From Pseudomonas sp. FeN3W (GTDB taxonomy: Bacteria > Pseudomonadota > Gammaproteobacteria > Pseudomonadales > Pseudomonadaceae): a stretch of DNA of 32,000 bases. Below are positions 544 through 31,737 of this stretch, piece after piece (position 1 is the stretch's first letter; every line of letters starts with the position of its first letter). The notes under the pieces were generated by a model. The model saw nothing but the letters and a program-made list of their open reading frames with translations. It was not told the origin of the DNA and did no database searches. The DNA is taken from contig CP136011.1 of assembly GCA_030263805.2 (NCBI GenBank), forward strand, positions 349,934 through 381,933. Direction: 5' to 3'. A program made the position numbers and the translations under genes.

Positions 544-655
544 AACATTGAATAGGCTTACCCGAGAGGATAACGCAAAAAATTCAAAATTTCTAATCCA
601 TCCAGGTTTATTGACGCGTATACTGATGACAGGTCACCCAGTTTGGAGTGAGTTT

Positions 656-9363: not shown

Positions 9364-10251
9364 ATGACCAAGACAACAATCCTTTACCATGCCAACTGTT
9401 TTGATGGCACGTTCTCAGCAGCAGTAGCCAAAGAGCATTTTGGGGATTCGGCAACCTACGTGCCCGTAAGCTATGATAAGCCTCTTACTGACTTTTCTAA
9501 TCAGCGTCTGTTTTTCCTTGATGTCGTCTACAAGGAAAAAGATATGCAATTACTTTTGGGCAAGGGCAATGAGATTCATGTCATTGATCACCATCGAGAC
9601 AATGTAAAACCCATCGCCCATCTTCCTTTGGCCTCTTTGAGGTACGATGCAAATGAATCCGGCGCCTCCTTGACTTTCAAGCACCTGAATCCAGGAAAAG
9701 AGCTGCCGCTTGCCATTGCACATGCCAGAGATTATGACCTTTGGCGCTTTGAATTGACGGGAACCCGCCACTTTGTGGCGAATCAGGCGACTCCCCCCCT
9801 CGAAGTAGACAGCTACCGCGAACTGCTCAGGCTTGAGGGCCGAGATTATGAGCAATTCGTTGAAGCTGGCAAGGGAATACTGGCGTATAAGAACAAACTA
9901 GTCGAAGAAATTTCCGCAAGTGCAATAAATATCAAACTCAAAGGCATCGAGGGATGGATGGTCAATGGGCCAGCAGAACTCAGAAGCGAAATTGGCAATT
10001 ATCTATCAATAAAGCATAAAGCAGCTTTCGCCCTGATTTGGAGTGAGCGCTCTGACGGGAAGATCAAAGTATCATTGAGGTCAAGCGAAGGAGATGCGCC
10101 TCTCCAGATTGCGAAAGCGCTTGGAGGTGGCGGCCATGACCGGGCAGCCAGTGCCGTCATGGAAAAATCAAAGTTCAATAGACTGGCTAGTTCAGCAAAA
10201 AAATCTGTGCAAGCGCGATCCCTGTCAGACTCCTGCTGCGATCATCATTAA
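9364..10251 (+). CDS. DHH/DHHA1-family phosphoesterase (NrnA/RecJ-like fold)
   Basis: Motif I HANCFDG, motif II FFLDV, motif III VIDHHRDN, and the DHHA1 motif GGGGHDRAAS near the C-terminus. Confidence 0.8.
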   Translation: MTKTTILYHANCFDGTFSAAVAKEHFGDSATYVPVSYDKPLTDFSNQRLFFLDVVYKEKDMQLLLGKGNEIHVIDHHRDNVKPIAHLPLASLRYDANESGASLTFKHLNPGKELPLAIAHARDYDLWRFELTGTRHFVANQATPPLEVDSYRELLRLEGRDYEQFVEAGKGILAYKNKLVEEISASAINIKLKGIEGWMVNGPAELRSEIGNYLSIKHKAAFALIWSERSDGKIKVSLRSSEGDAPLQIAKALGGGGHDRAASAVMEKSKFNRLASSAKKSVQARSLSDSCCDHH

Positions 10252-10370: not shown

Positions 10371-12038
10371 TTAAAAGGGCACATCTTCGAGGCCGTCACT
10401 CCCGCAGTGAGGGTGACTCGCGTGACGGGGTCTCACCGTCAACGTCCGGGTAGGGCTCAGTGAATGGGCCAGGCCTTTGCGTGTTGCCACGCATTGCTTG
10501 GCCGAAATCACAGGCGCAGGGGATTGTTTATGATCCCCAGACCGCACGTGCGCTGCATGCGCCGCTGACAGGTTTTTCCTCACGCCCGCCCAGAATGACC
10601 ATACATGCTTCGCCCGATTCCTTGCAGGTAGGGCAAAGGTGACATGGCCACCCCCGCGTGTGGGTGCAACACCCGCTCGCGTGGACAGACGTTCGGAAAA
10701 ACCCAATCCACGTCGGGCGATGGCCGTGGCCGCGCCCTGGTGGACAGAAATGCCTCGGACACTGGCGTGATTCACCGCGCCAATCACCGAGGTGTAGGCC
10801 GGGTTGACGTCAATGACTTCTACTCCGGCCCTGAAACAGGCGCTGCGTAACGCAGCCCCCACCTGTGCGTAAAAGAACCCAGAGAGCAGGCGTGCTGCCT
10901 TCGGATTCATCATGGTTAAATCGGATTTCTTCTGACGAAAATCCAGCTTTTCCAACACCAGTGGCTTGCCAGCGGCGGCGCACTGCGCCGCCACAGCCTT
11001 GGCCAGATCACCTATTTTGGCCTTGGCCTGATCGGTGGATAGACCATAGGTGGCGCATTGCAGGCGTTGGGTATTGGTCAAATTACCAAAACGATCCAGC
11101 TCGGCCAACGCCAGGTGATCGGCATTCAGATCGAGGCCAAAGGCACCAAGCCCGCGTTTCGTGACTATCGGGACATCGTCGTGCTGGGTCGAGACAAAGA
11201 CGCGCCAGCCCTGATCGTCTCGGATAAAGCGATAGCTCAGCGCTCGCCCTGCTACCAGGGAATTCAAAATGGATGGGTGGCCATAGGCAAACTGGACATC
11301 GGTCAGTGTGATGTATTTGCCCAGCGCTTCTGGCAAGCGCACCCTGAGCCTCAGGCGCTGATCAGCCTGCACAGTCGCCACGCAGCTCTGGCAGCCTGCG
11401 GTTTCATCCTTGGAGCCGACCAGGAAGAACTGATCACTGCGGCTGGTTTGCCAATCCTTTTTCCAGTCAGCGTGCGTCAATTGTGCATCATTGAATTGGC
11501 TGCGAAAACGCTTGCGAGAGCCAAAGCATAAACGGACTTTGCCGCAGGCTTTCTCAGTAATCATGCGTTCCAGGCGCGCCTGCTGGCGCGCCAGGCTGCG
11601 TTTCTTTTGATGCAGTGAGAACGCTAACTTATCGATCTTGACTGGATCGACAGTTGTCATTTTCTTTTTGGGTTTGCGCAGCACCTTAAGTTCTTTGTCC
11701 AGGCGCACAAGGGTTGAGGTCAGTCGCTTAATCTTGCCCTGAGCCTCATGAATGAGGTCACCCTGACGGGACTTAATCGACTCAATCTTGCCTTCCAAGA
11801 GCATGCGGATGGCATTGAAATGCCGGGCGGTGATGCCGTAGTCAGCAATAAACCTGGATTTTAGTTGGGCAATAGAAACCACTTCATCCTTGCGGTGGCA
11901 AGCGGCAAGCGAAGTGTTCTTCACCATAGCGGCAAACAACTTGCGCTCCAGTTGCCCGTATTGCTTCGCATAGGCATTTAAGGCAGCGTCTTGCGCAGCC
12001 TCTAGTACTAAGCGAGTTTGATAGGTGAAGACGGGCAA
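10371..12038 (-). CDS. tnpB: TnpB-like (OrfB) protein, atypically long and lacking the zinc-ribbon
   Basis: RuvC-I-like FGLDLNADHLA, RuvC-II-like LVLEKLDF, and NPAYTSVIG in place of the usual ..YTSQxCxxCG. No CxxC pairs follow, and SVHQGAATAIARRG sits where DxNAAxNI is expected. A long charged, coiled-coil-like insertion lies near residues 80-170. Confidence 0.85.
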   Translation of the reverse strand: MPVFTYQTRLVLEAAQDAALNAYAKQYGQLERKLFAAMVKNTSLAACHRKDEVVSIAQLKSRFIADYGITARHFNAIRMLLEGKIESIKSRQGDLIHEAQGKIKRLTSTLVRLDKELKVLRKPKKKMTTVDPVKIDKLAFSLHQKKRSLARQQARLERMITEKACGKVRLCFGSRKRFRSQFNDAQLTHADWKKDWQTSRSDQFFLVGSKDETAGCQSCVATVQADQRLRLRVRLPEALGKYITLTDVQFAYGHPSILNSLVAGRALSYRFIRDDQGWRVFVSTQHDDVPIVTKRGLGAFGLDLNADHLALAELDRFGNLTNTQRLQCATYGLSTDQAKAKIGDLAKAVAAQCAAAGKPLVLEKLDFRQKKSDLTMMNPKAARLLSGFFYAQVGAALRSACFRAGVEVIDVNPAYTSVIGAVNHASVRGISVHQGAATAIARRGLGFSERLSTRAGVAPTRGGGHVTFALPARNRAKHVWSFWAGVRKNLSAAHAAHVRSGDHKQSPAPVISAKQCVATRKGLAHSLSPTRTLTVRPRHASHPHCGSDGLEDVPF

Positions 12039-12090
12039 GTGGGGTATTCCAAACTGAATGGCTTGATACTAATCAGATCTTCTATACGGG

Positions 12091-12699
12091 TCAAGCCGCT
12101 TGCTGCAAGTGTTTTAGGTTTTTCCGTGAACGCGAGCCATATAACCTGGCAGAAAACACCGTCATCAACTCGATAACGTCAGCAACAAGGCTGGTTTCCA
12201 GATTGGCCTCTACTGGTTGATCAACAATCACCACCTGTGTTTTATTCAACTTGCACAATTCAAAAATGATATCCGCACCAAACCTGAGCAAGCGGTCTTT
12301 GTGAAGTAGTACCAACGTTGATACCTGGCCTAGCGCAATCATCCGCAGTAGCTTGAGAAAGGCTTTCTTTTGATAGTTCAAGCCACTGCCCAAGTCGCTG
12401 AGTATTTCTACATCCCTGTGTCCAGCGCTGTGACAATACTGAATCAGCCTGTCTCGTTGTCGAACCAGGTCTTCCTTTTGATCATGGCTAGATACGCGAG
12501 CATAGCCCACCACCTTACGTTGTTCTGGACTGTGCCTGCCTATCAGCGCATGGAGATCATTCACAGCATAACGACGATGCTGACCACAGGTGCGAAAAGA
12601 GGGTCGCAAGCGGCCATCTTTTTCCCAACGGCGAAGTGTTGAAATGGATACGCCGAGTAATTCGCTGGCTTCGACTATTGATAAATGCTGCATGATCAT
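12091..12699 (-). CDS. tnpA: IS607-type serine recombinase transposase (MerR-like HTH + resolvase catalytic domain)
   Basis: LSIVEASELLGVSISTLRRWEKDGRL (HTH) followed by VGYARVSSHDQKEDLVRQ (catalytic Ser motif) and LVLLHKDRLLRFG. Confidence 0.9.
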   Translation of the reverse strand: MIMQHLSIVEASELLGVSISTLRRWEKDGRLRPSFRTCGQHRRYAVNDLHALIGRHSPEQRKVVGYARVSSHDQKEDLVRQRDRLIQYCHSAGHRDVEILSDLGSGLNYQKKAFLKLLRMIALGQVSTLVLLHKDRLLRFGADIIFELCKLNKTQVVIVDQPVEANLETSLVADVIELMTVFSARLYGSRSRKNLKHLQQAA

Positions 12700-12796: not shown

Positions 12797-14881
<2,085 letters not shown>

Positions 14882-18085: not shown

Positions 18086-18163
18086 TTGTCGGCAATCACT
18101 TTTTAGACGACTACGAAGAAGCTATTGGCTTTTTGGTCACATGCCGATAGTATCCGTAACGCA

Positions 18164-18173
18164 TATATTGACA
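18164..18173 (+). promoter_or_regulatory. TATATTGACA motif site upstream of ATG 18203
   Basis: Exact 10-mer, 29 nt before ATG 18203, which has AGGGAAG upstream. No acceptable -10 lies 16-18 nt downstream of the TTGACA part. Confidence 0.4.
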
Positions 18174-18202
18174 GCCACGAACAGGGGTTTACCAGGGAAG
18201 AA

Positions 18203-19624
18203 ATGAACAGCATAAGCCGCATGAATTATGGCGTTACTCGATGCGCATTGATCAACACACGCCACCATAGCCTGGCTGTCTCACCTTTCTGGCCTGGCGC
18301 TCTCTCGACGCTGTACACGCAGGAGGTAGAGCTGGGCGAGTTGTCTAGCGCAATGCAATTGCTCTTAATGGGTCGTATTGGAGAGCATGATTTGGATACG
18401 CATGATGCATGCAGATCCAGAAACCTGTTTTTACCCGAAGAAACCAGTTTTGCAGTAATGGAGCTGTCGCTTCGCGATGGGGTCTATCTGCTCGGCGCCC
18501 ACGGAGCAGAATGCGATGAAATGCAAGGATATAGCCATTTTGTATGCAAAAAAAGATTGGACTTAAGCGATTTCATTGAAAATGGCCGCAATCTCTCATA
18601 CAGATGTGTTTTTGAGAAATGGCGTGCTAGCGGGTGTGCTTTAAAATTCCTCAACCATAAAGAGGTGGTGCAAATCCTCTATGGCGAATTCCCCCGTGTT
18701 GGATGCGGTCTTCTCGATTTGACTCTCGCTCCTCTCGTCGGTGCTGGTAATACAACCTATAATGAATTTTTAGGGATTTATAAACATCTTCTGTCTAGGT
18801 CTAGCATTACCGGAAATTCTTTTAAACAAATGGTTTTGCATGCGCTTTGCTTGAATAAAAAACACTGCGAATTAAAGGCGCCAATGAAAGATGACTTTGA
18901 AACATTAGAAAATTCGATAACATACGCGGCTCAAGCATCGGCCTTAATTAATGAGCTCAAAAAGATCAATAGATTCATTGACGACATTAACAAGGTGTTT
19001 AATAAAGTATATTGCACAAGAGGCAGGATTTATTTTCGCGCTCAAGATGTTGGCCAGGTTTCCGAGCTAATTCGCAATCTGGTTACCGAATACAATAAAA
19101 CTCAAATTGAGCGTAATGATCTGTTTCTTGGTATGTATGACTCTAATCTTGAAAACAATAATGCTTTAGCGATTGCACTAAAAAAGCTAAGGCAATTCAT
19201 GCTAAGCAACGAAATAAATTATATTACAATTTCATCAATTTTTGATTTATCGTTTAAACTAGATAATTCCAAAAAGCACGAGTTTGAACTCGTTGAATAT
19301 TTGGACGACGAAAATGCATCCCTCATTTCAATGTTTCTCATGCAATACTTTAAAGACAATAAGTCTGGTGGAGACACATCTCTTCCATGTTGTATATTTT
19401 TATCCAAAAGCCCAAGTCAAATTTTGGTTAAAAATATTGCTGAAATTTCAAGTAAATTTGGTTTCTCTCCAATATTTTTTGATAAATATGGTGATGCATT
19501 CTATTTACATCAAATCGATAAACATTACAAAACAAAATGCTTGCTTGATGATGAAGGCATTAACAATAGCTCAACAAGGGCAAGACTAGTTACTGAATAT
19601 CAATTAGGATTTCAATTCCAGTGA
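18203..19624 (+). CDS. hypothetical protein (~473 aa)
   Basis: ORF is open from 18125 (TTG). ATG 18203 is preferred because of the SD-like AGGGA and the upstream motif. The 3' half (from ~18750) is visibly AT-rich and Asn/Lys/Ile-rich. Confidence 0.65.
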   Translation: MNSISRMNYGVTRCALINTRHHSLAVSPFWPGALSTLYTQEVELGELSSAMQLLLMGRIGEHDLDTHDACRSRNLFLPEETSFAVMELSLRDGVYLLGAHGAECDEMQGYSHFVCKKRLDLSDFIENGRNLSYRCVFEKWRASGCALKFLNHKEVVQILYGEFPRVGCGLLDLTLAPLVGAGNTTYNEFLGIYKHLLSRSSITGNSFKQMVLHALCLNKKHCELKAPMKDDFETLENSITYAAQASALINELKKINRFIDDINKVFNKVYCTRGRIYFRAQDVGQVSELIRNLVTEYNKTQIERNDLFLGMYDSNLENNNALAIALKKLRQFMLSNEINYITISSIFDLSFKLDNSKKHEFELVEYLDDENASLISMFLMQYFKDNKSGGDTSLPCCIFLSKSPSQILVKNIAEISSKFGFSPIFFDKYGDAFYLHQIDKHYKTKCLLDDEGINNSSTRARLVTEYQLGFQFQ

Positions 19625-19713: not shown

Positions 19714-20922
19714 ATGAGCATGCCCGACATCCGCAAGGTTTTTTCTGACCTAGGTGAAATCAGCGGGCAGGCATTGTTAATGCCAATGCCCAAGCGAATG
19801 GCACTCGATGAAGTCAAGGCACTTAAGCGCGTAACGCTGGGAGAATCGTTCGATAGGCTGCTGAAAGACATAGCAGCCACTGGAGTAAGCGCCTCTACTG
19901 CTTACGGCATGCTTCAGGAATCTGATGCGGCTAGAAAAGTAATTGCTGATAAGCAATTTACAAAAGTTACTATTGTCTCTCTTTACATGATAACTAAACA
20001 TATGATGCGCAAGGCACCTTTGTTTAGTGTGAATCCTGCTCTTAATCTATTGCTGGAAGATACTGCAATTAAGGTGGTAGTGCCAGCAATGTTTTTTGCC
20101 CCTCCATTTCCTGAGTGCTTTGTAGAATTTGACCCTGCTGAAAGACGTATTCAATCAGAGCGCATCACATACTCCGGTGGAGAAAAATGTATATGCGAGG
20201 GCGCGTATATACAAGAAACTAAATTTGAACGTCTACCACCGGTTAGTCGGGATGTTAGAGAAGTGCTAGAGCTCGATCCAAACAAGCCGGCAAGAGTGAT
20301 AGAGATTGGATTTAGCGCGTCGCCAGTAAACTCAACAAAGGCAGAAGCTACTGGAGCGCCCGTTGCGTTCGACAATGTTGACCTTATCAGTATTTACATA
20401 CAGGATGAGCATGAAGCTATCAGCGATATTTTGGACAGGCATTTTGAGCTGTATTCACAAAGGATGTCGGAATCCCATTGTTCAGATGAAAATAATAGCT
20501 TTGTAAAGCTTTTTAAGAGTAATTTTGCTCATTTAACTAAAATACTGTTCTATCTTCATGTCGAGAAAGCACAGCGGCGCACTGAATTTGAAGAATCAAA
20601 ACTTTCTGAGCGTATCAGCCAGGTTCAGGACAAGAAAAAAGAAAAGCTTAAGAAACAATTAACTAGAGTTTATGACCGAATTGTAGTCGGGCCTGATCAT
20701 TACACGCCAATCAAGGATCTAGTGTCCACAAGCAATCTTCCAAAGGGTACGAAAAGCCCTCATTACCGGAGAGGTTACTTTGGTATACGATGGAAAGGTA
20801 TTGGTGAAAATAAAGTACCAGAACTAGTGAAGGTATCCCATACCATAATCAACGAGTCATTAATGAAGCAGTCGCTAAAGGATGGCAAGGATAAGTCTCC
20901 TAAAGACTACGAGATTCGTTGA
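19714..20922 (+). CDS. hypothetical protein (402 aa)
   Basis: Strong AGGAGG RBS at 7-nt spacing and a long ORF. It has a Lys/Glu-rich coiled-coil-like segment (QDKKKEKLKKQL) and a basic C-terminal HYRRGYFGIRWKG. No family recognised. Confidence 0.8.
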   Translation: MSMPDIRKVFSDLGEISGQALLMPMPKRMALDEVKALKRVTLGESFDRLLKDIAATGVSASTAYGMLQESDAARKVIADKQFTKVTIVSLYMITKHMMRKAPLFSVNPALNLLLEDTAIKVVVPAMFFAPPFPECFVEFDPAERRIQSERITYSGGEKCICEGAYIQETKFERLPPVSRDVREVLELDPNKPARVIEIGFSASPVNSTKAEATGAPVAFDNVDLISIYIQDEHEAISDILDRHFELYSQRMSESHCSDENNSFVKLFKSNFAHLTKILFYLHVEKAQRRTEFEESKLSERISQVQDKKKEKLKKQLTRVYDRIVVGPDHYTPIKDLVSTSNLPKGTKSPHYRRGYFGIRWKGIGENKVPELVKVSHTIINESLMKQSLKDGKDKSPKDYEIR

Positions 20923-20924
20923 CC

Positions 20925-21866
20925 CTAAAGGGAGAGGCCGTGAACAAGCGCGGCCTTCTTGTGTGCCGGTGATTCCATGTCGTCAATAACTGATTCTATT
21001 CCAAGCTTGAAAGCCATCACTCTAAGGTCATCGTCTAGAAGCTCAGATTTACGAGTTTTCTCGTCCATGTTATGTAAGTAACTTACAAGTACCGTCCCCA
21101 CTGACTTATATTTATTAATTATTGTATCGGTGTCATAAACATCGCCCGATAATTTTTGGCAGAGTTCTTGTAGTAGCCCACGCCAGCTATAATCTTGAGT
21201 ACCCAACTCCTTGGCCATAGCTCTTCTAATCAAGGATATGCTGCTTTCTTGCCGAGCTGACGTCAAAGCCTGCATATAAGCCCTGCTTCTGCACAGAATG
21301 TCAACATGGGCTATTTCAGGAAGAAACTCATCCAAATTAGCCAATGCCAAAGACTCTCTATCGAAACGAGAAAGGCTCATTTGGACTGACGCCGACTCGC
21401 CCAAGCTTTCCATCCAGTGTGCAATGTCATTAGCAAGAGAATGCCTGTTCATTTGCATTGAATAGGTTAAGACGCCCTGACGATAATGAGTTGAGATAGT
21501 GTCCAAACACCCGTCACTTTTAAGCCACAATGACAGCCTTATCCTTGCAAAGCGCTCAGACATGTACATAAGTGTAGACATGAACACGCCTTTACCCATG
21601 CCTATTGAGCTTTCCAGACTTGATGAAAGTGCTGAAAACAGCTCCTCATTCATCAATGGACAAAGTTTCTCACCTTGTTCCAGCAAGAGTCTATTTACCT
21701 GGCTAGCAAGTTTGCGATTTGTCGCAAGTAGATTTATTAGGTCAATGCCCTCTGATTCCAGATTGCTTGACTTGCCAAATGCTTGGATAAGTGTTTCTGC
21801 GCTAATAACTCTGTCGATCATATTGCTTGCGGGTGCGCAGCAGCCGCTCCTGACTAGTAATTTCAA
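20925..21866 (-). CDS. hypothetical protein (298-313 aa)
   Basis: Long ORF. Start is ambiguous: TTG 21866 or ATG 21821, and neither has a good SD. It converges on the 19714-20922 gene with a 2-nt gap. Confidence 0.7.
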   Translation of the reverse strand: MKLLVRSGCCAPASNMIDRVISAETLIQAFGKSSNLESEGIDLINLLATNRKLASQVNRLLLEQGEKLCPLMNEELFSALSSSLESSIGMGKGVFMSTLMYMSERFARIRLSLWLKSDGCLDTISTHYRQGVLTYSMQMNRHSLANDIAHWMESLGESASVQMSLSRFDRESLALANLDEFLPEIAHVDILCRSRAYMQALTSARQESSISLIRRAMAKELGTQDYSWRGLLQELCQKLSGDVYDTDTIINKYKSVGTVLVSYLHNMDEKTRKSELLDDDLRVMAFKLGIESVIDDMESPAHKKAALVHGLSL

Positions 21867-21882
21867 AAAACCGGGTTCTACT

Positions 21883-22362
21883 CTAGTCTGGGCATATCAG
21901 TTCTTCGGGGTCAAGTAAATCGGCTTTTGTTTTGCGAATGAGCTCAAGCGTAAAGTTTTCCGGGCCCGTCATAAATATTCTGAGACAGGACTCTTCATGC
22001 CTTAGATGCTTAAGCATGGGTTTGGTTTTCAAGTCACTTAAAGAAGTGGGTTTTTTCTCCAAGAAACCCATTAAGTTTTCATCAATACGCCAATACGGGC
22101 TCTCGTTTATGATGAATGTTTTAGGCTCTCGCTCCTCCTCTACAAGACCAATGAAATCTACGCCTTTTTGGCTGTAAATCTTTTTGATGACCTCGTAATG
22201 TGAAACGCTGATCCTATCAGGCCGCAACTGAGCATCTTTGAATGCCACTGCAAGCTCTGAGGTTGTGACAAGCTCATTGCCCTGATAAAGCATAAGCTCC
22301 GTGGCGGAGCTGAGCGCACTAAACGTAACAAGCACAAATGCGGCGATACAATTCATATTCAT
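21883..22362 (-). CDS. secreted/periplasmic hypothetical protein
   Basis: N-terminal signal peptide MNMNCIAAFVLVTFSALSSA|TE. AAGAGGAA RBS. It has its own promoter. Confidence 0.7.
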   Translation of the reverse strand: MNMNCIAAFVLVTFSALSSATELMLYQGNELVTTSELAVAFKDAQLRPDRISVSHYEVIKKIYSQKGVDFIGLVEEEREPKTFIINESPYWRIDENLMGFLEKKPTSLSDLKTKPMLKHLRHEESCLRIFMTGPENFTLELIRKTKADLLDPEELICPD

Positions 22363-22416: not shown

Positions 22417-23553
22417 TCAAAGATCCAGCTGGCTAAGTAAGATTGGTTTTTTGTCCTGCTGCCGAGCAAAACTCATCCACCCCTGGCCTGGCATTAGCTC
22501 CTGGAGGGATGCTATGAGGTTTTTTGAGCGATTTCCCTTTATGATTTCTGCTTTATCAGTGCCCGAGAAAAGATCCGACAAACCATTGTTGATTTCGACG
22601 GGAATTTTCTTGGCCCAGTGCGCGCCGATTGCCTTAGCTAATCGTTCTATTGGATCCAGGAGCTTCTGATACTCATCTACCGAAATAACGTAACCATCTC
22701 GCTTAGCTGCCAAAAATAGATCAACTTGTCCCTTGAAGGCCGTAAATGCTCTCCCGTCAGCCACCGCTCTTTTTAATGGGTAATATCGCGAGAGATCAAA
22801 AACTTCCGTAGCGACCCTAAGCGTTTCTTGCCACATTACACTACTGCTTTTGCTGGAAAGCTTATTAATATAGGCATCCTTTTGTAACCAAAAATTGTTG
22901 GCTTGATCCGCCAAACCATAGACATCTTTATCCCCCCTTGCCTTTAGGTCTTCCATTAGCATTGAATGCAACTCGTGTTTTCCTTCGAAGAAGGGCCTCA
23001 TCCAGTCTTTCACATTTGCCATGATCAATTGGCTGTTGGGAAGATCCTTTTCCTTGAATCTTTTATAAAGAAATTCAAATACATCGAGGTTTCCTGCTGA
23101 AAGTTCTCGGTTCAAATGCATAGTTCCAAGAAATGGATGTATTGCCCCGCCAAGCTTGTATATATGAAACTCATCAATCAAGAAAAACATCTCGATATGT
23201 TGATCAGTCGTTAGCGGCGGGCTGATTCTATGCATGGCCTCTTTCATCGAAACAAGTGCTGTCCCGATTGCTTCAAAATCGTAATCAACCTGTTCGTCTG
23301 TCTGATTAGCTATAAGCGTTGTTGGCTGATTCGCCACTAACTCTTTAACAAGGTCTACGACTGACTCATAATCTCCTGATTTCATCAGTAATTTTGGTAT
23401 GTCGTACAATGGAATATACGAGGTGGAGGCGTCAAAACCCCTCAGGGCAGGGAACGCGGCCATGGCTAGTTGTGTGACTTCAGAAAGACTTGGGCCCTTG
23501 GCGGGCCCAGCCCAGTACGCGTCTATGAGTGCTTTTTTTTCATTGCCAGTCAT
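22417..23553 (-). CDS. hypothetical protein (378 aa), last gene of the GHKL operon
   Basis: Its ATG overlaps the upstream TGA (ATGA at 23550-23553). No recognisable motif. Confidence 0.75.
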   Translation of the reverse strand: MTGNEKKALIDAYWAGPAKGPSLSEVTQLAMAAFPALRGFDASTSYIPLYDIPKLLMKSGDYESVVDLVKELVANQPTTLIANQTDEQVDYDFEAIGTALVSMKEAMHRISPPLTTDQHIEMFFLIDEFHIYKLGGAIHPFLGTMHLNRELSAGNLDVFEFLYKRFKEKDLPNSQLIMANVKDWMRPFFEGKHELHSMLMEDLKARGDKDVYGLADQANNFWLQKDAYINKLSSKSSSVMWQETLRVATEVFDLSRYYPLKRAVADGRAFTAFKGQVDLFLAAKRDGYVISVDEYQKLLDPIERLAKAIGAHWAKKIPVEINNGLSDLFSGTDKAEIIKGNRSKNLIASLQELMPGQGWMSFARQQDKKPILLSQLDL

Positions 23554-25223
23554 GGGTTCAGACCTGTTTCATCGTTAGAGAGCTGGTTTTTTGTCTTACG
23601 CCTTGAGGACTTGTTAACGCTATGTGCTTCGCGCCAACCCGAAACAGCGTTTTCGAATGCGCTGATGATCTCGCGCTCACCAATGTCCCTACGCATGATC
23701 CTCCTCAGGCGCGATTCGCGGATAGTGAAGGCTTCGCCGTGGTAGTCGATATCCAAGTGTGTCAGCTCGTGATGTGCAATATCTATCAAATCACCAACCG
23801 AAAGCTTTTCATCTTCAGCAACCTTGGGGTTGAACAGAATAGCAACTCGTTTAGCCTTCTCGTCACGCTGGCAAATTCCTTCTGGAGATCCAAACACAAA
23901 TCCCGTGTGAATCAACAGGTCTTCATGGAAAAAGGCGTTGCCACGCTTAACCACTCGCAGTGATTCCCTATAATTTTTGGATTCAAGTAGCGTGTTGATG
24001 ATCGCTTCCCAGCCTGCGGCAAGCTTTCCATAACGTTTGAGGTTCATCTTCTGTGCGATTTCACCCGCATATTGATGAGCGCCTTCTGGAGAGCTTGATT
24101 CATCGAGATATTTTACTTTAAAGTTTTCTGGATACCATTCACTCGGTATTTTATTTATTTTGGAATCCAGATGATTTTTGACACGGTTGATTTTTTCAAC
24201 GAGATGTCCAAATGGGTGCTTGGCGCGACCATCAATAACCTCATCAGCAGCATCTTCAAGGTAGGTGAGCATTTGCTCCGGATCCATGCCTTTGCTATAT
24301 GCGGCCTCTCTAATTTCATTCTCAAGCTCTACGCCATAAGCCGATATATTTCGCTCGTTTAGCAAAATATCGATGTCACCACTAAGCTTAAGCTTCTCCC
24401 TGTCATTAGACAGTTGCTGCATAATTTGATTTAAAACATCGCGATGATTGCGATTAAGCGAATCACGGTTCGAAGTCATCAGATCCTTGGAATCACCCTC
24501 AAGCTCAAGGTAGCCCTCAAATGCCGTCCCTGAGCTCATGTAAAGCCGCTCGTTGAACATCGCAAGGCCACGCATCCTCACCCACAGCAATGATGTTGAG
24601 TACCCGTGCGGCTGGTCTTTGAAGGACAGGGGGCCAAGAGGGGTTTGCTTGGTGTACGGATGATCATCAACACCGCAAGCCAGAGATTCGCCATTTAGGG
24701 TGATTTTCACTGCCGAGGGAAGGCGAGAATGATGAATCAGTCTTCTTAGCGAATCCTCCATCATCCAGATTTCAGCCTCCTCCTTGGGCATGTCAGCTGT
24801 AAGGCGAACACCAGGCATGGTCTCATTGCCTGTCGTCCAGGAGTAGCTACCACCTGCGCCCGTAAGGTGTATGCCCTTTGTTTCAACTTCATAGCGAGTG
24901 TGCGCGAAGGCCAGAATGACCTTGGCATAGCCAAACCCCCCGATGCTTCCCTCCTCTTTCTCGGATTGACCGAGAGCTAGAAAGACGTTGAAGAGCTTGT
25001 GCTCATCCATGCCACGACCATCCCCATGGCAAACGACACGCGTTAGCCCTGGATCTTCAGCGTTCGGGCAGATGGTGAAGTCGATATGAGTGGCTCCCGC
25101 ATCCAGTTCATTCTGGATGGCCTCCCTGAACCAGGCGATGCGCCAATCTGCATATTCGTTTTTGGCTTTTGCGTAATAGCTGGCAGGAAGCTTGACCTGC
25201 CCGTGATGAATCATATCAGTCAT
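23550..25223 (-). CDS. GHKL (HSP90/MORC/MutL-type) ATPase fused to a C-terminal SprT/YgjP(DUF45)-like zincin motif
   Basis: N-box E34-AIQ-N38-EL-D41-A, G1 box D68-GRGM, and G2 box GGFGYAK (95-101) preceded by LGQSEKEEGS. C-terminal H485-ELTH-LDIDY-H495-GEAF follows the HExxH-x5-HGxxF pattern of SprT/YgjP/WLM-type metallopeptidases. Confidence 0.7.
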   Translation of the reverse strand: MTDMIHHGQVKLPASYYAKAKNEYADWRIAWFREAIQNELDAGATHIDFTICPNAEDPGLTRVVCHGDGRGMDEHKLFNVFLALGQSEKEEGSIGGFGYAKVILAFAHTRYEVETKGIHLTGAGGSYSWTTGNETMPGVRLTADMPKEEAEIWMMEDSLRRLIHHSRLPSAVKITLNGESLACGVDDHPYTKQTPLGPLSFKDQPHGYSTSLLWVRMRGLAMFNERLYMSSGTAFEGYLELEGDSKDLMTSNRDSLNRNHRDVLNQIMQQLSNDREKLKLSGDIDILLNERNISAYGVELENEIREAAYSKGMDPEQMLTYLEDAADEVIDGRAKHPFGHLVEKINRVKNHLDSKINKIPSEWYPENFKVKYLDESSSPEGAHQYAGEIAQKMNLKRYGKLAAGWEAIINTLLESKNYRESLRVVKRGNAFFHEDLLIHTGFVFGSPEGICQRDEKAKRVAILFNPKVAEDEKLSVGDLIDIAHHELTHLDIDYHGEAFTIRESRLRRIMRRDIGEREIISAFENAVSGWREAHSVNKSSRRKTKNQLSNDETGLNP

Positions 25224-25422
25224 GATTTTTGCCTGCGGTTCTTATGAGTATACGAATTGCTTCCTGTTTTGACAGGCCCTTGCTGGCTTTTTTGGACATT
25301 GCTTTGGTCACGTTGCACAGAATCGCCCAGTCACTTTCGGTCAACGGCAAGCCAACAGCTCGCATGCATGCCTCAGCCTGCAACCTCGGCCTCCCAGCTT
25401 TTCTTTTTCCGGAAAGGGTCAT
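25216..25422 (-). CDS. small basic protein, possible ribbon-helix-helix/AT-hook DNA binder
   Basis: 68 aa with KRKAGRPRL near the N-terminus and two helix-like segments. It overlaps the upstream gene by 4 nt (ATGA) and the downstream gene by 8 nt. Confidence 0.55.
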   Translation of the reverse strand: MTLSGKRKAGRPRLQAEACMRAVGLPLTESDWAILCNVTKAMSKKASKGLSKQEAIRILIRTAGKNHD

Positions 25423-25877
25423 GGCGCACCATCCTCAAGCCCCTGTGCGGGCTTCAGGTGTGGACAGGTTTCATAGAGTATATCTAACAAGATCTTTTGG
25501 TTAAGGCTTGAAACAAGATACTCTTTATTTTCCGAATATCCTTCGAGTGATACGGTAAAAGCGGTCACAGGATTTGAAAATTTTACTGCCTTTTCAGCAG
25601 CCTCCAAAGCCATGTGCTCTTTGACCTCCAGCAATTTATGCTCAATGCTGTTAACCTTTATTTTCTTCATCACGCCGTATTCATGGCGAACTATTTCGCT
25701 TCTTCTTTTGTCCGCAATCATGGCCAGCATTGATTTTTCACTATCTCGACCAATGCTGTACCAGGAAAAATCATCGCCACGCAGATAATATTGCTTGAAG
25801 ACAAGGCGCACAGGCTTTTCCTTTGGGCTAAACCCTCTGGAAATTTTCTTGCCCTCGTTGTAAATCTTGATCGCCAT
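25419..25877 (-). CDS. hypothetical protein (152 aa), first gene of the GHKL operon
   Basis: ORF with ATG 25877. Its stop overlaps the next start. No motif recognised. Confidence 0.7.
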   Translation of the reverse strand: MAIKIYNEGKKISRGFSPKEKPVRLVFKQYYLRGDDFSWYSIGRDSEKSMLAMIADKRRSEIVRHEYGVMKKIKVNSIEHKLLEVKEHMALEAAEKAVKFSNPVTAFTVSLEGYSENKEYLVSSLNQKILLDILYETCPHLKPAQGLEDGAP

Positions 25878-25950
25878 GTGATTACCCTATATCGTAGATA
25901 TAAGTTTGACCCATGAGCGACACCTTATTCAAGATACGAGAGTCAAGAAA

Positions 25951-26785: not shown

Positions 26786-26834
26786 GTATCAATAAATGTG
26801 TTATACAATACTCTCAACCATTCACAGGCTTACC

Positions 26835-27212
26835 ATGAGCAAGCATCCACTCTCTCCAAAATTTAGCAAGAAGCAAGCTGGCGAAAAAATGGGCGAATCG
26901 CCGCTGTGGCAGAATTTTGCGCTTCGGATCCAGCATCATCCAGATATCAAGCAATCATTGATCATCCTGCAACAGGGCAAATGCCCTTTGTGCCAGATGC
27001 CTGTTGTGCATACTGACACCGTCCATCATTTAAGCTACTTGTCTAAATGTATTACAGAAGAGGTAGTTTCGTTTCCAACCCCCACGCAAAAACGACCCAG
27101 CAAGACCAGTAAGGCACCACCCTGCTCAGGATGTCCTGAGCAGCAGCGATGCCTGAGACTGCTGGCACTTGTCCATGATCGTTGTCACTACAAGATTCAC
27201 GCGAATGACTAA
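26835..27212 (+). CDS. HNH-like (beta-beta-alpha-Me) endonuclease candidate
   Basis: CPLCQMPVVHTDTVHH ... CSGCPEQQRC ... LVHDRCHYKIH gives two Cys pairs plus His-His and the H..CH...H tail typical of HNH. No SD at ATG 26835, and the ORF is open from 26796. Confidence 0.5.
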   Translation: MSKHPLSPKFSKKQAGEKMGESPLWQNFALRIQHHPDIKQSLIILQQGKCPLCQMPVVHTDTVHHLSYLSKCITEEVVSFPTPTQKRPSKTSKAPPCSGCPEQQRCLRLLALVHDRCHYKIHAND

Positions 27213-27214
27213 GG

Positions 27215-27862
27215 TTAGGCGATGAACTGAATTACGCGTGACATTTTTTCATTAATTACATTGAAGACGTCATTTATCACCTGATCCAATGATTTAGATG
27301 CATCAATAATCCGATAGTCATCCGGGTTCTCCCTCGCCTGCGCAAGAAACCCCTCCCGAGCCCTTGCATGAAAATCCAGCTCAGCCAACTCCACTCTTTC
27401 GAGCTTCTCGCCTCGCGATTTGACGCGCTGTGCACCCACTTCAGGATCAATATCAAGAATAATTGTCAAATCAGGCTTGAAGCCACCAAGCGCTATTGCA
27501 TTTAGCGATTTGATCAAGTGAAGTGAAATCCCCCTCCCGTAATGTTGAAAACTCACGCCCGATGCTGCGAAACGATCACAAATCACGACCTTTCCTGCCT
27601 CTATGGCTGGAATGATAAGCTGCCTCACATGCTGAGCTCTCGAAGCCGCAAAGATCATTGCCTCAGTGACATCATGCATTTCAGGTGTGTCAGGAGACAG
27701 CACAATCTCTCTTAGCTTTTCACCAATAACCGTTCCTCCTGGCTCTCGACTGAATACAACCTGGTGACCATCGGCACTTAGTCGATCCCCAACCATCCTA
27801 ATCACGCTTGATTTTCCAGCGCCATTGCCGCCATCGAAAGCGATCATAAAACCTTTTTTCAT
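27215..27862 (-). CDS. tmk: thymidylate (dTMP) kinase
   Basis: P-loop FDGGNGAGKSS, SREPGGT, DRFAASGVSFQ, and LID region VKSRGEKLERVE. ATG 27862 is preferred. The ORF-track start at 28027 would run through the upstream terminator and gene. Confidence 0.9.
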   Translation of the reverse strand: MKKGFMIAFDGGNGAGKSSVIRMVGDRLSADGHQVVFSREPGGTVIGEKLREIVLSPDTPEMHDVTEAMIFAASRAQHVRQLIIPAIEAGKVVICDRFAASGVSFQHYGRGISLHLIKSLNAIALGGFKPDLTIILDIDPEVGAQRVKSRGEKLERVELAELDFHARAREGFLAQARENPDDYRIIDASKSLDQVINDVFNVINEKMSRVIQFIA

Positions 27863-27898
27863 GTACTTCTCTACTCGTCGATATGCATAGTGAATGAA

Positions 27899-27937
27899 CA
27901 AAAAATCCCGCCTTATGCGGGACTTTTCTTTTTTTGG
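27899..27937 (-). terminator. rho-independent terminator (bidirectional sequence features)
   Basis: TCCCGC (27906-27911) pairs with GCGGGA (27917-27922). It is flanked by an A-run on one side and a T-run on the other, and lies 5 nt beyond the stop of the 27942-28589 gene. Confidence 0.8.
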
Positions 27938-27941
27938 CGAA

Positions 27942-28589
27942 TTAAAGCTGATCAACCACGGCTGGGTCAGCTGACACCAGTACAAGGACGCAATCCTCTT
28001 GCACCGTGTCGCAGGCCTGCTTCTCAACTGCGGGCGCTGGATCAGCCACGAGATCTTCTGCGACGAGCGCGCCTTGAGTTACCTCGACTGATGCTGCCAC
28101 GGGCGACACGCTGGTCTCCTGGCTGTCATGAGTCAGGTCATCATCCTGATCACCTGAATTGGCGTGCCTGATGCCAAGAACATCGAAGAGATCCACCGTC
28201 TCTTTGTCTTTGAGCTCAAACGGCATTTTTCGAACGTGCTCTGAAAGCTGAAGCAGTGCATCTGCAAGCACTTCATTGCTAACAGAGCTCTCGCGAAGGC
28301 CAACAACTGCTGTGAGGCGCGTATTGAGGATTCTTGCGCGAAGTGTGGTGGTCATCGAAGCGTCACGCGTGGTTCTGGCGCTGTCGCGTGAGCAATCGAT
28401 AAGCTCCAGACGCGGCGTGTCTCCGAGAATGACCTTAATCTTCGCATCAGGAACCTGTGACTCAAAGTCTTCAGCCCATTTTGCCATTTCTGCGGTAACC
28501 ACCTCCACAGGAGCCTTTACCGACTGGAGGACGTTGAAAATATTGTTTACGTTCGCCCATAGGGCTTTTTGCTGCTTGTTGAGATTCAT
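27942..28589 (-). CDS. hypothetical protein (215 aa) with an acidic C-terminal third
   Basis: AGGAGA RBS 7 nt upstream of ATG 28589. No motif recognised. Confidence 0.7.
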   Translation of the reverse strand: MNLNKQQKALWANVNNIFNVLQSVKAPVEVVTAEMAKWAEDFESQVPDAKIKVILGDTPRLELIDCSRDSARTTRDASMTTTLRARILNTRLTAVVGLRESSVSNEVLADALLQLSEHVRKMPFELKDKETVDLFDVLGIRHANSGDQDDDLTHDSQETSVSPVAASVEVTQGALVAEDLVADPAPAVEKQACDTVQEDCVLVLVSADPAVVDQL

Positions 28590-29331: not shown

Positions 29332-31737
29332 CTAAACAGCTTTGAGTGATCTGTCATCATGCGTTTTGTCTTCCCTGTCGTCAATACCACTCATTGGCTT
29401 TTGATGATGAGCTGACGTGCTGGGTAATGATCCGGACAGCAAATCTCCAAAACTCACCTCTTTATCAAACGCATCATTCAATGCTTGAGCCAGGAGCCTC
29501 GCGTCATTCATGGCGAGCGCGGGTATTTGCAACTGGCTTTGCTCACCCATTTTCTCACAGAGCTCGTTTTCGATATTGATCAGACTTGAAAGCCGGTCTT
29601 TTGAGAAGCGCAGATGCCGATCAGAATGATCACTCAGTATGCTCAGGGCGGCCCGTTTTCCAGCGCTTATCAGCACATCCTTTTGATCTGCCGAAAGATG
29701 GAACTGCTCGGTTTTCACCATTCCTGTGTTGACTACACCGGTATTTTCCAAGATCTGCTCAGATGGGAGGGCTGCATTGTATTTATCCATAATGCTCTCA
29801 ACCATCCAGCCAGCTGCCTTGCCAAGTGGCGCGGTCAAAAGTGACTTGATCTGGCTGGCCGCATCACCAATTCTCAGCGACCCAAGGTTTAATCCAAGGC
29901 TGTATAGGAAAATGCCGAATTCAACACTCGCCGTTTTGGCTTTGTTGATGAATCCCTCTGGGTATCGCTCAAGCTCGATGGCCATCTGCTTCTTGGCAAC
30001 CTTGGCCATATCATCAATAGCCAGGCTTTCCATATCTGAGTCTATTGTTGAGAGAACAAACCCTATTGTCTTCTCCTCGGCCAATTTCGGATCGTCACCG
30101 AATTTATCGAGAAATATTGAAAATGGGTTGTTCGCTATCATCCCGCCGTCAAAATGCTTCTTCCCTTTGTAGCGCATGGTGTCGAACACAAATGGCAGGT
30201 TCATGCTGGCGCGAACAGCTGTCTTGACCGGCATATCTACGTAGTCGCCACCGCCAGCCCGCGCAAATACAGGTTTGAAATTTGCATGCTCATCCTTTAT
30301 TTGGTGGGCAGAATCATTCACATCCACTTTCCCGAATAAGGACTTCAATGACCTTACGGCGCTATCATAGGCACGTGGAAACCAGCCTAGCGTCATAATA
30401 TGGCTTTCAGTGATGGCTACCCCAAATTCCTTGAACGATTGATAATTGCTCTCCTGGGCAAGCCCTTGTAGCTCTGTAAAGCTTATGGCCCTCATCTTTT
30501 CCTTTGATGTGAGGGTCTTTGCCATTTCGGATGCCGGGTTTTTTTCAATATAGCGCGAGACAGCAATCTCAATGATGTCGGCAAGGTATGACTCGATCAT
30601 GTCATTCTCAGGATGATACGACTCACGGCAGCACCGCACAGAGGTTGCGCAGGCCTGAAGATACTCGCTTCGCCCTGGCAGGCCTGAGAACTTGATTACA
30701 TCAACCTCATTTACCCTTCCTGATGAAATCAGATGTCGCTCGTATGCATCCTTCGATTCCCTATATAGCGCGTCAAGATTGGCCCCCTGATCCCTCAGAA
30801 GCGAATCAAGCTCAGTGTCCTTAAGCATGATCAAATCGATCCTGGCTATGCCTGTTTCTTTCACCAGCCTTGGCAACATGAATTTTTCAGCAAACTCTGA
30901 CAGATTGAAGCCTTCGAGGTATGGGTGATCTTCTGGCTTGAGTGTGCCTCTCCAGCGATCAATAATTAGCCCAGGCGCGGCCATCAACTTGAATATTTGC
31001 GAACTTTGAGCGAAAAATTGAGCAAATTGACCGTTTCGAACGATTGAGTTTATCTCTTGCGACTCAAATCCCATGGAGACAAGCAGTCCAAGCAGCGCCC
31101 CTGCTGATGTACCTGCCACATATTTAACATTCGACGTGATGCCGGCCTTCGTCAAAATCTCTTCAACCCCTGCATAGCTCATCCCTTTTGCCCCACCACC
31201 CTGAAACGTCAGAATTTCAGGGCAGAACCCACGCCGCTGACGTCTAAACATATTTTCAGCACGGTCAATGGCGCTTGGGATTAGTGATTCGAATTGCTTG
31301 ATTGCCCGCCCAATTTTCTCCACAAGTTTAATGGGTCTATCGGCTGGGTTTAGGGGGTACGCCTTAACCATGTCTTCGAAGCTTCTAATGTGCTCAATGA
31401 CACGGGTGTAGCGCAATCTACTATCAGGGTCGTTGCAAATCGCCTTGGCAATCGCATACGTCGCCTCTCCTCCGACTCTGCGAATAAGCTCAGGGGAGGG
31501 CCTTGGCTGCTCAACAGCCATGAGCATCTGCGTTGTAAAGATCTTGTGAACAACAGGTATCAGATTTTCAGCCCTGATATAGTCACTAGGGTTGTCGCGC
31601 TGTGCTATTGCAGCATTGATTACATCCGGCAAAACCCCTTTGATGACTGCTGCCATTTCATGGATGGCGAGATCCTTTAGAAACTGCGCGCTGGCTTTCT
31701 CGCGCGCCTCTCGCACCTTTGATAACAATGCTCTCAT
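29332..31737 (-). CDS. patatin-like phospholipase A, ExoU/VipD-type, with long N- and C-terminal extensions
   Basis: Oxyanion GGGAKG (180-185), nucleophile elbow G-T-S211-A-G, ASMNLPFVF, and catalytic D530-GG. 801 aa in total. Confidence 0.9.
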   Translation of the reverse strand: MRALLSKVREAREKASAQFLKDLAIHEMAAVIKGVLPDVINAAIAQRDNPSDYIRAENLIPVVHKIFTTQMLMAVEQPRPSPELIRRVGGEATYAIAKAICNDPDSRLRYTRVIEHIRSFEDMVKAYPLNPADRPIKLVEKIGRAIKQFESLIPSAIDRAENMFRRQRRGFCPEILTFQGGGAKGMSYAGVEEILTKAGITSNVKYVAGTSAGALLGLLVSMGFESQEINSIVRNGQFAQFFAQSSQIFKLMAAPGLIIDRWRGTLKPEDHPYLEGFNLSEFAEKFMLPRLVKETGIARIDLIMLKDTELDSLLRDQGANLDALYRESKDAYERHLISSGRVNEVDVIKFSGLPGRSEYLQACATSVRCCRESYHPENDMIESYLADIIEIAVSRYIEKNPASEMAKTLTSKEKMRAISFTELQGLAQESNYQSFKEFGVAITESHIMTLGWFPRAYDSAVRSLKSLFGKVDVNDSAHQIKDEHANFKPVFARAGGGDYVDMPVKTAVRASMNLPFVFDTMRYKGKKHFDGGMIANNPFSIFLDKFGDDPKLAEEKTIGFVLSTIDSDMESLAIDDMAKVAKKQMAIELERYPEGFINKAKTASVEFGIFLYSLGLNLGSLRIGDAASQIKSLLTAPLGKAAGWMVESIMDKYNAALPSEQILENTGVVNTGMVKTEQFHLSADQKDVLISAGKRAALSILSDHSDRHLRFSKDRLSSLINIENELCEKMGEQSQLQIPALAMNDARLLAQALNDAFDKEVSFGDLLSGSLPSTSAHHQKPMSGIDDREDKTHDDRSLKAV

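Follow-up and report, generated by a model that had tools for sequence, protein, structure and literature searches.

A GHKL ATPase joined to a minimal zincin on giant mobile elements: a candidate ATP-gated clamp protease

What might a protein do that joins, on one polypeptide, a GHKL-type ATP-binding domain to the active site of a zinc protease, and what would a megaplasmid gain from carrying it? The question is raised by a 32,000-nucleotide stretch of DNA (hereafter the window; contig CP136011.1, positions 349,934 to 381,933) from Pseudomonas sp. FeN3W, a marine-sediment iron oxidiser now classified as Stutzerimonas stutzeri. On its minus strand, at 23550-25223, the window encodes a 557-residue protein in which a GHKL domain, a transducer, a linker and a zincin follow one another (the fusion protein), and the 378-residue protein encoded next to it is 100% identical to P5704_025495 on the 909,734-bp FeN3W plasmid. 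Taken as a whole, the best explanation that we can offer is an ATP-gated clamp protease that would serve the establishment or maintenance of the element that carries it, a reading we hold tentatively and place a little short of an even chance.

The N-terminal half of the fusion protein is that of a GHKL ATPase, as an earlier note on this DNA had proposed from motifs. Residues ~5-165 (24729-25211, minus strand) form a Bergerat-fold ATP-binding domain, supported by Pfam HATPase_c_3, by profile matches to MutL, MORC and HtpG, by an AlphaFold model (AF2) and by column counts in the family alignment. HATPase_c_3 is found in all 35 aligned relatives (best E-value 8.7e-11) and HATPase_c in 31 of the 35, while the window protein scores just below the 25-bit gathering score of HATPase_c_3 (E = 6.4e-5, 23.4 bits). 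Against the PDB, the family profile matches MutL (5.8e-6), MORC2/3, PMS2 and HtpG, aligned on the N-box and the G1 box. The N-box, E34xxxN38xxD41A42, is present in the window protein, and E34 and N38 are found in 291 of ~293 aligned family members. The G2 box, GGFGYAK (residues 95-101), lies within an ATP-lid that is modelled at low confidence, and its glycines are kept throughout the family (G95 in 291 and G98 in 292 of 293 aligned members). Both of these motifs, like the HExxH motif described below, sit where the earlier note had put them, and their conservation is far beyond chance.

The model of the whole 557-residue protein, computed from the 35-sequence alignment (mean predicted local distance difference test score, pLDDT, 83.7), extends this assignment beyond the ATP-binding domain. 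Foldseek aligns it with TRAP1/Hsp90 (4e-11), MORC3/4 (~3e-8) and MutL LN40 (1e-7) across 340-370 columns, and at this length the alignments take in the transducer as well as the ATP-binding domain. The transducer, a second alpha/beta domain resembling a middle domain, comprises residues ~166-292 (24348-24728, minus strand), and its motif T250-S-N252-R253-D254-S-L is near-invariant. R253 is present in 285 of 287 members and may be the basic residue reaching the γ-phosphate. A variable helical linker (residues ~293-361; 24141-24347, minus strand), modelled at lower confidence, leads to the C-terminal half. Neither the window protein nor the 35 relatives contain an Hsp90/HtpG, MutL_C, DNA_mis_repair or MORC accessory Pfam domain.

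The C-terminal half is a minimal zincin metallopeptidase domain (residues ~362-535; 23619-24140, minus strand), recognised through the AF2 model, Foldseek, PDB profile searches and Pfam. In the model, a helical bundle and a five-stranded sheet are combined with the active-site helix and with helices at the C-terminus. Its catalytic motif, H485-E486-L-T-H489-x5-H495-G-E497-A-F499 (HELTHLDIDYHGEAF, residues 485-499; 23727-23771, minus strand), is near-invariant across the family. Indeed, 54 C-terminal domains with a mean column identity of only 19% all keep H485-E486-x2-H489-x5-H495, and among the 260 members covering the region H485, E486 and H489 are each present in 259 and H495 in all. Searched against the PDB, the domain profile matches minimal zincins and nothing else, namely Schizosaccharomyces pombe Wss1 (0.0028), proabylysin (0.032) and Saccharomyces cerevisiae Wss1 (0.043), with all of these alignments anchored on HExxHx5H..F. 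In a Pfam scan of the 54 C-terminal domains, 17 match YgjP-like, 16 WLM and three SprT-like; depending on the scan, WLM is found in 15-16 members (best E-value 1.2e-6) and YgjP-like in 7-17, and no single model spans the family. Modelled in isolation, the domain is predicted with high confidence (pLDDT 94.2, predicted template modelling score 0.90), and selecase (probability 0.99) and Wss1 (0.54-0.90) account for its first seven Foldseek matches. Together, these observations uphold the metallopeptidase assignment of the earlier note and, as judged from sequence and predicted fold, make the domain a divergent member of the Wss1/YgjP/minigluzincin group that does not fit cleanly into one Pfam family. 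The two signatures travel together: HExxH..H is present in 56 of 56 tabulated locus-derived proteins, and ExxxNxxD in all of these except L045.

We find no earlier description of this architecture. Pfam has no family-level model for the fusion, and a keyword search of the literature returned no description of a GHKL-zincin fusion. The PHROGs touch the family only at the N-box region, through phrog_6203 (function unassigned), and no PHROG matches it over its full length. PADLOC is likewise without a match, and the remark of the earlier note, which did not recognise the architecture as a described one, therefore stands across these four sources. The family is nevertheless large. An exhaustive profile search at E ≤ 1e-3 returned 5,515 representative proteins, counted as clusters at 50% identity, and 1,104 of these pass E ≤ 1e-30; with ~1,100 clusters and ~5,500 detectable relatives it is not rare, yet it is unnamed. 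Most members are 470-560 residues long and match from end to end, and the long ones (783-1,241 residues), when scanned for informative extra domains, yielded none.

Every member examined sits on a mobile element, be it a megaplasmid of 0.7-1.2 Mb, an integrase-flanked island or an IMG/VR contig of up to 500 kb. Carriers among Pseudomonas plasmids (0.95-1.17 Mb) include pPLMAXa and those of P. serbica and P. silesiensis, and further carriers are P. nitroreducens, Caenimonas and metagenome-assembled genomes of Rhodocyclales, Propionivibrio and Gammaproteobacteria. On the 709-kb plasmid pBSY19_1 of Bosea sp. RAC05, an 810-residue member (WP_069052602.1; L069, 4968-7400) is annotated only as 'ATP-binding protein'; it contains the N-box, MTSNRDGL and HEVAHIFAPADH motifs and adjoins a tyrosine recombinase. 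IMG/VR contributes 48 carrier contigs; 23 of them reach 100 kb or more, and 12 reach 200 kb or more. A tblastn search with three family members against 50,697 GenBank phage records gave no match, and because of this empty result we do not call the fusion a phage gene despite its matches in IMG/VR. One contig that is filed as viral, from Aeromonas veronii (PZKL01000037.1, 215,275 bp; loci L003 and L019 are the same), has SmpB, two Hfq, NUDIX and HNH genes around the fusion gene. Megablast searches for nucleotide similarity to plasmids and phages returned nothing. We did not adopt a placement of the host element in the pMPPla107 family, because in PLSDB tblastn gave a full-length match only in the P. 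silesiensis plasmid.

How, then, might the two halves work together? The GHKL ATPases MutL, Hsp90 and MORC are dimers whose N-terminal domains close on ATP and whose transducer relays this motion to a C-terminal effector. We propose an ATP-gated clamp protease because, in the fusion protein, the effector attached to the GHKL clamp is an intact zinc-protease site. By analogy we infer a dimeric arrangement in which nucleotide-driven closing of the N-terminal clamp would capture a protein substrate, or would gate or license access to the active site; the zinc site formed by H485, H489 and H495, with E486 as general base, would then cleave the captured protein. To our knowledge, all well-studied ATP-dependent proteases use AAA+ motors; in the fusion, a GHKL engine would take the place of the AAA+ one in gating the protease with ATP, which, if true, is a different engineering solution.

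A role in the establishment or maintenance of the element itself is favoured because the family is confined to mobile elements, is inherited vertically in a megaplasmid backbone and has DNA-metabolism and anti-defence-type genes as neighbours. Structural kinship with phage rIIA points the same way; in a structural search of BFVD, most of the best named matches are RIIA proteins of the T4 type. Two versions of such a role can be distinguished. In the first, the targets destroyed by the protease would be host proteins by which the element is attacked or silenced, as ArdC does with its Spartan-like protease; a counter-defence or establishment protease of this kind is a real possibility, if one that falls well below even. 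In the second, it would clear proteins stuck on the DNA of the element, much as Wss1-type proteases act; it strikes us as rather unlikely that the protease removes DNA-bound or cross-linked proteins so as to maintain its own replicon. In the Stutzerimonas/Pseudomonas megaplasmid clade, the protease would furthermore have gained lineage-specific partners, namely the coupled 378-residue protein, a basic 152-residue protein and, in the nearest relatives, a 68-residue protein.

The first difficulty for ATP gating lies in the window protein itself. The earlier note had cited DGRGM as part of the ATPase signature; the letters are present, but they are one residue out of register with the G1 box (DxGxG) of the family. 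In a profile alignment, the family box D67-N-G-x-G-M lines up with D58-N-G-C-G of MutL, whereas the G1 box of the window protein (GDGRGM, residues 67-72; 25008-25025, minus strand) reads G67-D68-G69-R70-G71-M72, and the canonical adenine-contacting Asp is therefore missing. Of the 293 sequences, 260 have D at position 67, 21 have G and 12 have N. The glycine is restricted to the subclade of the window protein, into which all sequences fall that share 51% identity or more with it, so that the Asp of DxGxG is a feature of the family and not of the window copy. To call this copy an ATPase sensor, as the earlier note did, is consequently uncertain. A second clade, of phage type (L028-L031, L036, L041, L043, L049, L051), combines N67 with GxPM in place of GxGM and keeps the zincin motif intact; by its sequence, we read this as the canonical ATP site having been eroded independently for a second time. 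The remaining ATP-site residues are invariant in both the G67 and the N67 groups.

These substitutions bear directly on an alternative in which there is no working ATP-gated protease here, and in which the G67 protein is instead a degenerate GHKL scaffold carrying a constitutive or partner-regulated protease, or else a structural or regulatory protein or a non-peptide hydrolase. Non-peptide hydrolysis has been suggested for some YgjP-like proteins, and YgjP-like matches are as frequent in the family as WLM matches. Furthermore, the G1-box Asp is lost across the whole subclade, and this subclade alone gained the 68- and 159-residue partners, consistent with rewired regulation. However, E34, N38, D41, G69, G71, the G2 box, K101 and R253 are invariant in the subclade, and because these other ATP-site residues are kept, selection on the nucleotide pocket appears to have continued. 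D68 or N68, beside the lost Asp, might substitute for it, and the four zinc-site and catalytic residues are all intact. We regard a degenerate scaffold as unlikely. The D67G and D67N variants that occur in nature offer a ready test of the need for nucleotide binding.

An alternative of the same low standing takes the ATPase half at face value and assigns it to a chaperone: an Hsp90-like clamp would hold client proteins and the zincin would trim or degrade them, in the proteostasis or maturation of the element's own proteins and with no role in DNA transactions or host conflict. The best structural matches are indeed TRAP1/Hsp90, the Hsp90-like Sacsin model of Pfam matches 11 of the 35 members, and the family is acidic (median isoelectric point, pI, 5.9), as is Hsp90. 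The L-T-S-N-R-D-S-L stretch of the middle domain presumably resembles the catalytic loop of Hsp90, which we take to read L-N-x-S-R-E-x-L. However, the members have no Hsp90/HtpG match in Pfam, sequence profiles favour MutL and MORC over HtpG, and the profile of the transducer domain alone finds no match in the PDB by sequence, Hsp90 included. A weak motif resembling a tetratricopeptide repeat (TPR) in the partner encoded at +1 would suit a chaperone, but a single motif is all that is seen, and none of its per-domain E-values is significant. The fusion gene lies away from structural and morphogenesis genes, and a general proteostasis factor is not expected to be exclusive to mobile elements.

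Returning to the ATP-gated clamp protease, its genetic setting in the window is a block of four minus-strand genes whose coordinates, as reported in the earlier note, match the list of open reading frames exactly. The first encodes a basic protein of 152 residues (25419-25877; pI 9.0), the second a basic protein of 68 residues (25216-25422; pI 10.45), the third the fusion protein and the fourth the acidic 378-residue partner (22417-23553). The three start/stop overlaps from which translational coupling had been proposed are confirmed on the DNA: ATGA at 25419-25422, ATGACTGA at 25216-25223 and ATGA at 23550-23553, the last joining the stop codon of the fusion gene to the start codon of the 378-residue partner. 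The upstream overlaps, of 4 nt and 8-11 nt, are preserved in L015 and L016, and the fusion gene overlaps the next gene by 4-14 nt in L002, L007 and L018. Since such tight junctions recur in related elements, the coupling is a conserved feature and no accident of the window sequence. Two further genes on the same strand, for proteins of 159 and 313 residues (20925-22362), follow after a 54-nt gap that has a promoter-like site inside. At the other end, the intergenic region 5′ of the 152-residue gene (25878-25950), which separates divergent genes, is unusually conserved. It contains a perfect 6-3-6 palindrome, TATATCTACGATATA (25888-25902), 11 nt 5′ of the start codon, and the stretch around it is strikingly kept in L015 and L016 despite flanking proteins that are only 31-47% identical. 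With low confidence, we consider the palindrome a candidate operator.

To what extent is this block a unit? Crude gene calls from 66 loci and the window were clustered, 63 of the loci and the window having a detectable family member; partner families were then searched for with hidden Markov models in all fetched loci, and the clade counts that follow refer to eight distinct elements of the Pseudomonas/Stutzerimonas megaplasmid clade. A 378-like gene at +1 and a 313-like gene at +2 or +3 to the fusion gene are present in all eight. A 152-like gene is found directly upstream of the fusion gene in six of the eight, and the 68-residue gene directly upstream and the 159-residue gene downstream in three each. 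In the other ~55 loci none of the partner families was found, and the fusion gene stands alone among unrelated neighbours. A conserved four-gene unit is thus not supported: the fusion gene is the only one common to all related loci, while only the nearest relatives have the 152/68 pair and only one megaplasmid clade has the 378-like gene. The interpretation of the four genes as a conflict system is in this sense partly supported. Because the partners co-occur inside a syntenic backbone and not in shuffled contexts, co-occurrence is weaker evidence of a functional linkage than it would otherwise be, and the best argument that the fusion protein and the 378-like protein work together is the conserved overlapping junction.

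The partners themselves offer few clues, and PDB profile searches with the 68-, 152-, 378- and 313-residue families gave no credible match. The 378-like family has no catalytic-looking conserved residues, its invariant positions being W, F, G, A and L, and a homologue search with the 378-residue protein, as a single sequence and as a profile, found itself and one other only. Of its linear features, the one most strongly conserved is the extreme C-terminus, which ends in SQLDL, DDLGL or QELGI with L376 invariant; this tail may resemble those that bind sliding clamps. A TPR identity was rejected for this family: no match is credible, and its weak single TPR-like score against designed TPR proteins is a sum of individually insignificant repeats. 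The protein is probably an adaptor, a regulator or an inhibitor. The 152-like family has the motifs MAIK..F.Q.Y..EAAEKAVK and no Pfam or PDB match, and the earlier note was right that neither this protein nor the 378-residue one has a motif that can be identified. It was right, too, about the basic character of the 68-residue protein and its GRPR element, GRPRL being invariant in the three known homologues. By eye, a three-sequence alignment of the latter follows a strand-helix-helix pattern (GLPLT.DDWA.L ... LSKQEVIRIIIR); no ribbon-helix-helix profile in Pfam or the PDB matches it. From this pattern the protein is probably a ribbon-helix-helix autoregulator, limited to the nearest relatives. 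DNA might be contacted, in the operon of the window, through the two small basic partners instead of through the fusion protein. The 313-residue protein (20925-21866, minus strand) has an invariant GxGKG..E..R..D..D and looks enzymatic, with no Pfam or PDB relative. The 159-residue protein (21883-22362, minus strand) begins with a signal-peptide-like stretch, MNMNCIAAFVLVTFSALSSA, and is encoded between the 378-like and 313-like genes in the nearest subclade only.

The wider neighbourhood further defines the kind of DNA on which the fusion gene resides. In the megaplasmid clade, the region is collinear at 25-68% protein identity, in the order MvaT-like, NYN, patatin, two unknown genes, thymidylate kinase, Cys/His-rich HNH-like, the cluster and NAD-ligase. 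The picture of accessory DNA with a defence-island layout, drawn in the earlier note, does not agree with this, since the genes lie within a syntenic megaplasmid backbone block (patatin-Tmk-HNH-like-GHKL-zincin-NAD-ligase). PADLOC-DB v2, run on ten proteins in and around the cluster, had no match for the four proteins and only weak or irrelevant scores for the neighbours. Nor is the analogy to restriction-linked MORC proteins supported, as no restriction-modification genes flank the fusion gene in the megaplasmid clade. In non-Pseudomonas genomes, the fusion gene adjoins tyrosine recombinases, and genes for RadC, DnaB, HsdM and tubulin/FtsZ-like proteins are close by; this setting is the signature of integrated mobile elements, which we take these loci to be. 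In IMG/VR, a sample of 148 neighbours consists mostly of DNA methyltransferases, helicases, clamp loader, homing endonucleases, RecA and dCTP deaminase, and includes a T4-type prohead protease once.

It is against this neighbourhood that a defence or exclusion module has to be weighed, in which the GHKL domain would sense an invader, the zincin would act as an abortive-infection or exclusion effector by cleaving an essential protein of the host or of the invader, and the small partners would serve as regulator or antitoxin. A zincin that cleaves an essential host protein is known in Lit. A sensor ATPase with an effector is a common defence layout, megaplasmids and huge phages carry defence genes, the coupled acidic 378-residue protein could be an inhibitor or immunity protein, HsdM, the methylase of type I restriction-modification, lies near one distant member, and prokaryotic MORC and MutL homologues occur in restriction-modification contexts (PMC2292703). 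We nevertheless consider this the least probable of the alternatives, since PADLOC is empty for the ten proteins, the gene belongs to a syntenic backbone that is inherited vertically in elements 45-61% identical and is no patchy island cassette, outside one clade it is solitary and has no conserved partner, its neighbours are genes of DNA replication, modification and recombination together with an AcrVA2-like anti-defence gene, and no member among those examined was seen in a chromosomal defence island.

Several other genes of the window deserve mention. A 402-residue protein is encoded three genes downstream (19714-20922, plus strand) and is AcrVA2-like through a precomputed PF26125 assignment to a 96.5%-identical gene in L001; local Pfam gave no match, and homologues are present in L015, L016 and L008. 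The L001 counterpart of a 499-residue open reading frame (18125-19624, plus strand) is flagged as MksF-like (PF28007, precomputed), and the product may be a plasmid-borne condensin or Wadjet-type kleisin. A 138-residue Cys/His-rich protein (26796-27212, plus strand), with weak matches to PtuB/HNH and endonuclease VII, is 46-68% identical in every megaplasmid-clade locus, where its gene always lies just upstream of the cluster and is usually divergent. Genes for proteins of 555 and 202 residues, the latter resolvase-like (10371-12699, minus strand), have homologues seven to eight genes from the fusion gene in the marine metagenome contigs L004-L006, which hints at a backbone shared more widely between this megaplasmid and uncultured marine elements. 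The window further carries, at 518-3310, 9364-10251, 12797-14830, 27215-28027 and 29332-31737, genes for a Suv3-like DExQ helicase, a DHHA1 phosphoesterase, a full NAD-dependent DNA ligase, a thymidylate kinase and an 801-residue patatin-like protein, a replication and nucleotide set typical of ~1-Mb Pseudomonas megaplasmids. The GC content of the window, 38-56%, is low for the host genus.

We return to the proposal of an ATP-gated clamp protease acting for its own element, and to the points that weigh against it. The window's subclade is without the canonical ATP-contacting Asp (G67), as is the second clade with N67 and GxPM, and ATP gating may for this reason not apply to the window copy. 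The window protein alone has no zincin match in Pfam, and the Foldseek E-values of the zincin domain are modest (at least 1e-2). An analysis of domain net charge, aimed at a basic DNA-binding surface, found no basic domain, which together with the acidity of the family weakens a direct DNA-clamp reading. The conserved gene order, lying in a syntenic backbone, is no proof of a functional link with the partners. Many of the IMG/VR carriers, filed as 'viral', may be huge phages, phage-plasmids or megaplasmids. Mobile elements carry defence genes too, and restriction to them would suit offence and defence alike. The function proposed would thus derive from domain logic and genomic context.

A bolder form of the proposal would make the GHKL-zincin proteins an unrecognised class of ATP-dependent proteases, near-universal in giant mobile elements, that strip host proteins on and around their DNA, such as defence nucleases, silencers and trapped enzymes; in Stutzerimonas and Pseudomonas they would form a multi-subunit machine with the 378- and 152-residue proteins, and the C-terminal tail of the former may tether it to, for example, the sliding clamp. 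In this full extent we think it doubtful. The elements to which the family is restricted are the largest of the mobile elements and the least well understood, and many resistance and catabolic traits travel on them; the fusion is a candidate for a marker of, and for a key factor in, the establishment and persistence of giant elements in new hosts. For rIIA-like GHKL proteins, whose biochemistry has long been unsolved, it provides a point of entry as well.

How does the fusion compare with systems already known? Its zincin shares with Wss1/WLM and SprT/Spartan, with YgjP-like DUF45, with selecase and with proabylysin the motif HExxH-x5-H followed by ExxF, and the compact fold of a sheet and an active-site helix. 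It differs from Wss1-type zincins in its low identity (11-20%, with modest scores), in an extra N-terminal helical bundle and in the fused GHKL domain. Unlike SprT and Wss1, the fusion has neither the SprT zinc-binding subdomain nor a ubiquitin- or SUMO-related module, and the family is acidic, a composition that lends no support to DNA-dependent cleavage of DNA-protein crosslinks. An ATPase and an HExxH zincin are also combined on one polypeptide in FtsH; there the ATPase is AAA+ and not GHKL, the protein is a membrane-anchored hexamer, and it has no homology to the fusion.

Among proteins of mobile elements, T4 rIIA is similar in having an N-terminal GHKL domain and a second domain, and its gene is followed by a co-transcribed partner, rIIB. 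It has been described as a GHKL ATPase with a variable C-terminal domain and a poorly understood role in phage counter-defence (PMC7824862). In hhalign, rIIA and the fusion align over 76 N-terminal columns only, with a probability of 85%, T4 rIIA has no HExxH, and rIIB is unrelated to the 378-residue partner (probability 0.1%). With no rIIA PHROG matched in addition, membership in the rIIA/rIIB system was rejected. ArdC of plasmid R388, an anti-restriction factor that consists of a DNA-binding domain and a Spartan-like metalloprotease, is likewise a two-domain protein of a mobile element whose C-terminal metalloprotease acts for the incoming element (PMC7213743). It is common to plasmids and huge phages (bioRxiv 10.1101/2025.02.27.640493). 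Its N-terminal domain binds single-stranded DNA and is no ATPase, and its third metal ligand is Glu, whereas that of the fusion is His. Membership in ArdC was also set aside: the fusion has no ArdC-related Pfam match and no sequence relationship to ArdC, in addition to its different third ligand.

Finally, MutL, MORC and Hsp90 have in common with the fusion the Bergerat fold and the transducer, and an arrangement that runs from an N-terminal clamp through a linker to a C-terminal effector. The effector of MutL is a metal-dependent endonuclease, whereas that of the fusion is a protease-type zincin, and the subclade of the window protein is without the G1 Asp. Membership in MutL or in prokaryotic MORC/paraMORC was not accepted, given that MutL_C and DNA_mis_repair domains are absent and that no restriction-modification genes flank the gene in the megaplasmid clade. 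Together, these comparisons place the GHKL-zincin fusion, which is real and widespread, as a variant that had not been described so far among GHKL-effector proteins and ATP-linked proteases.

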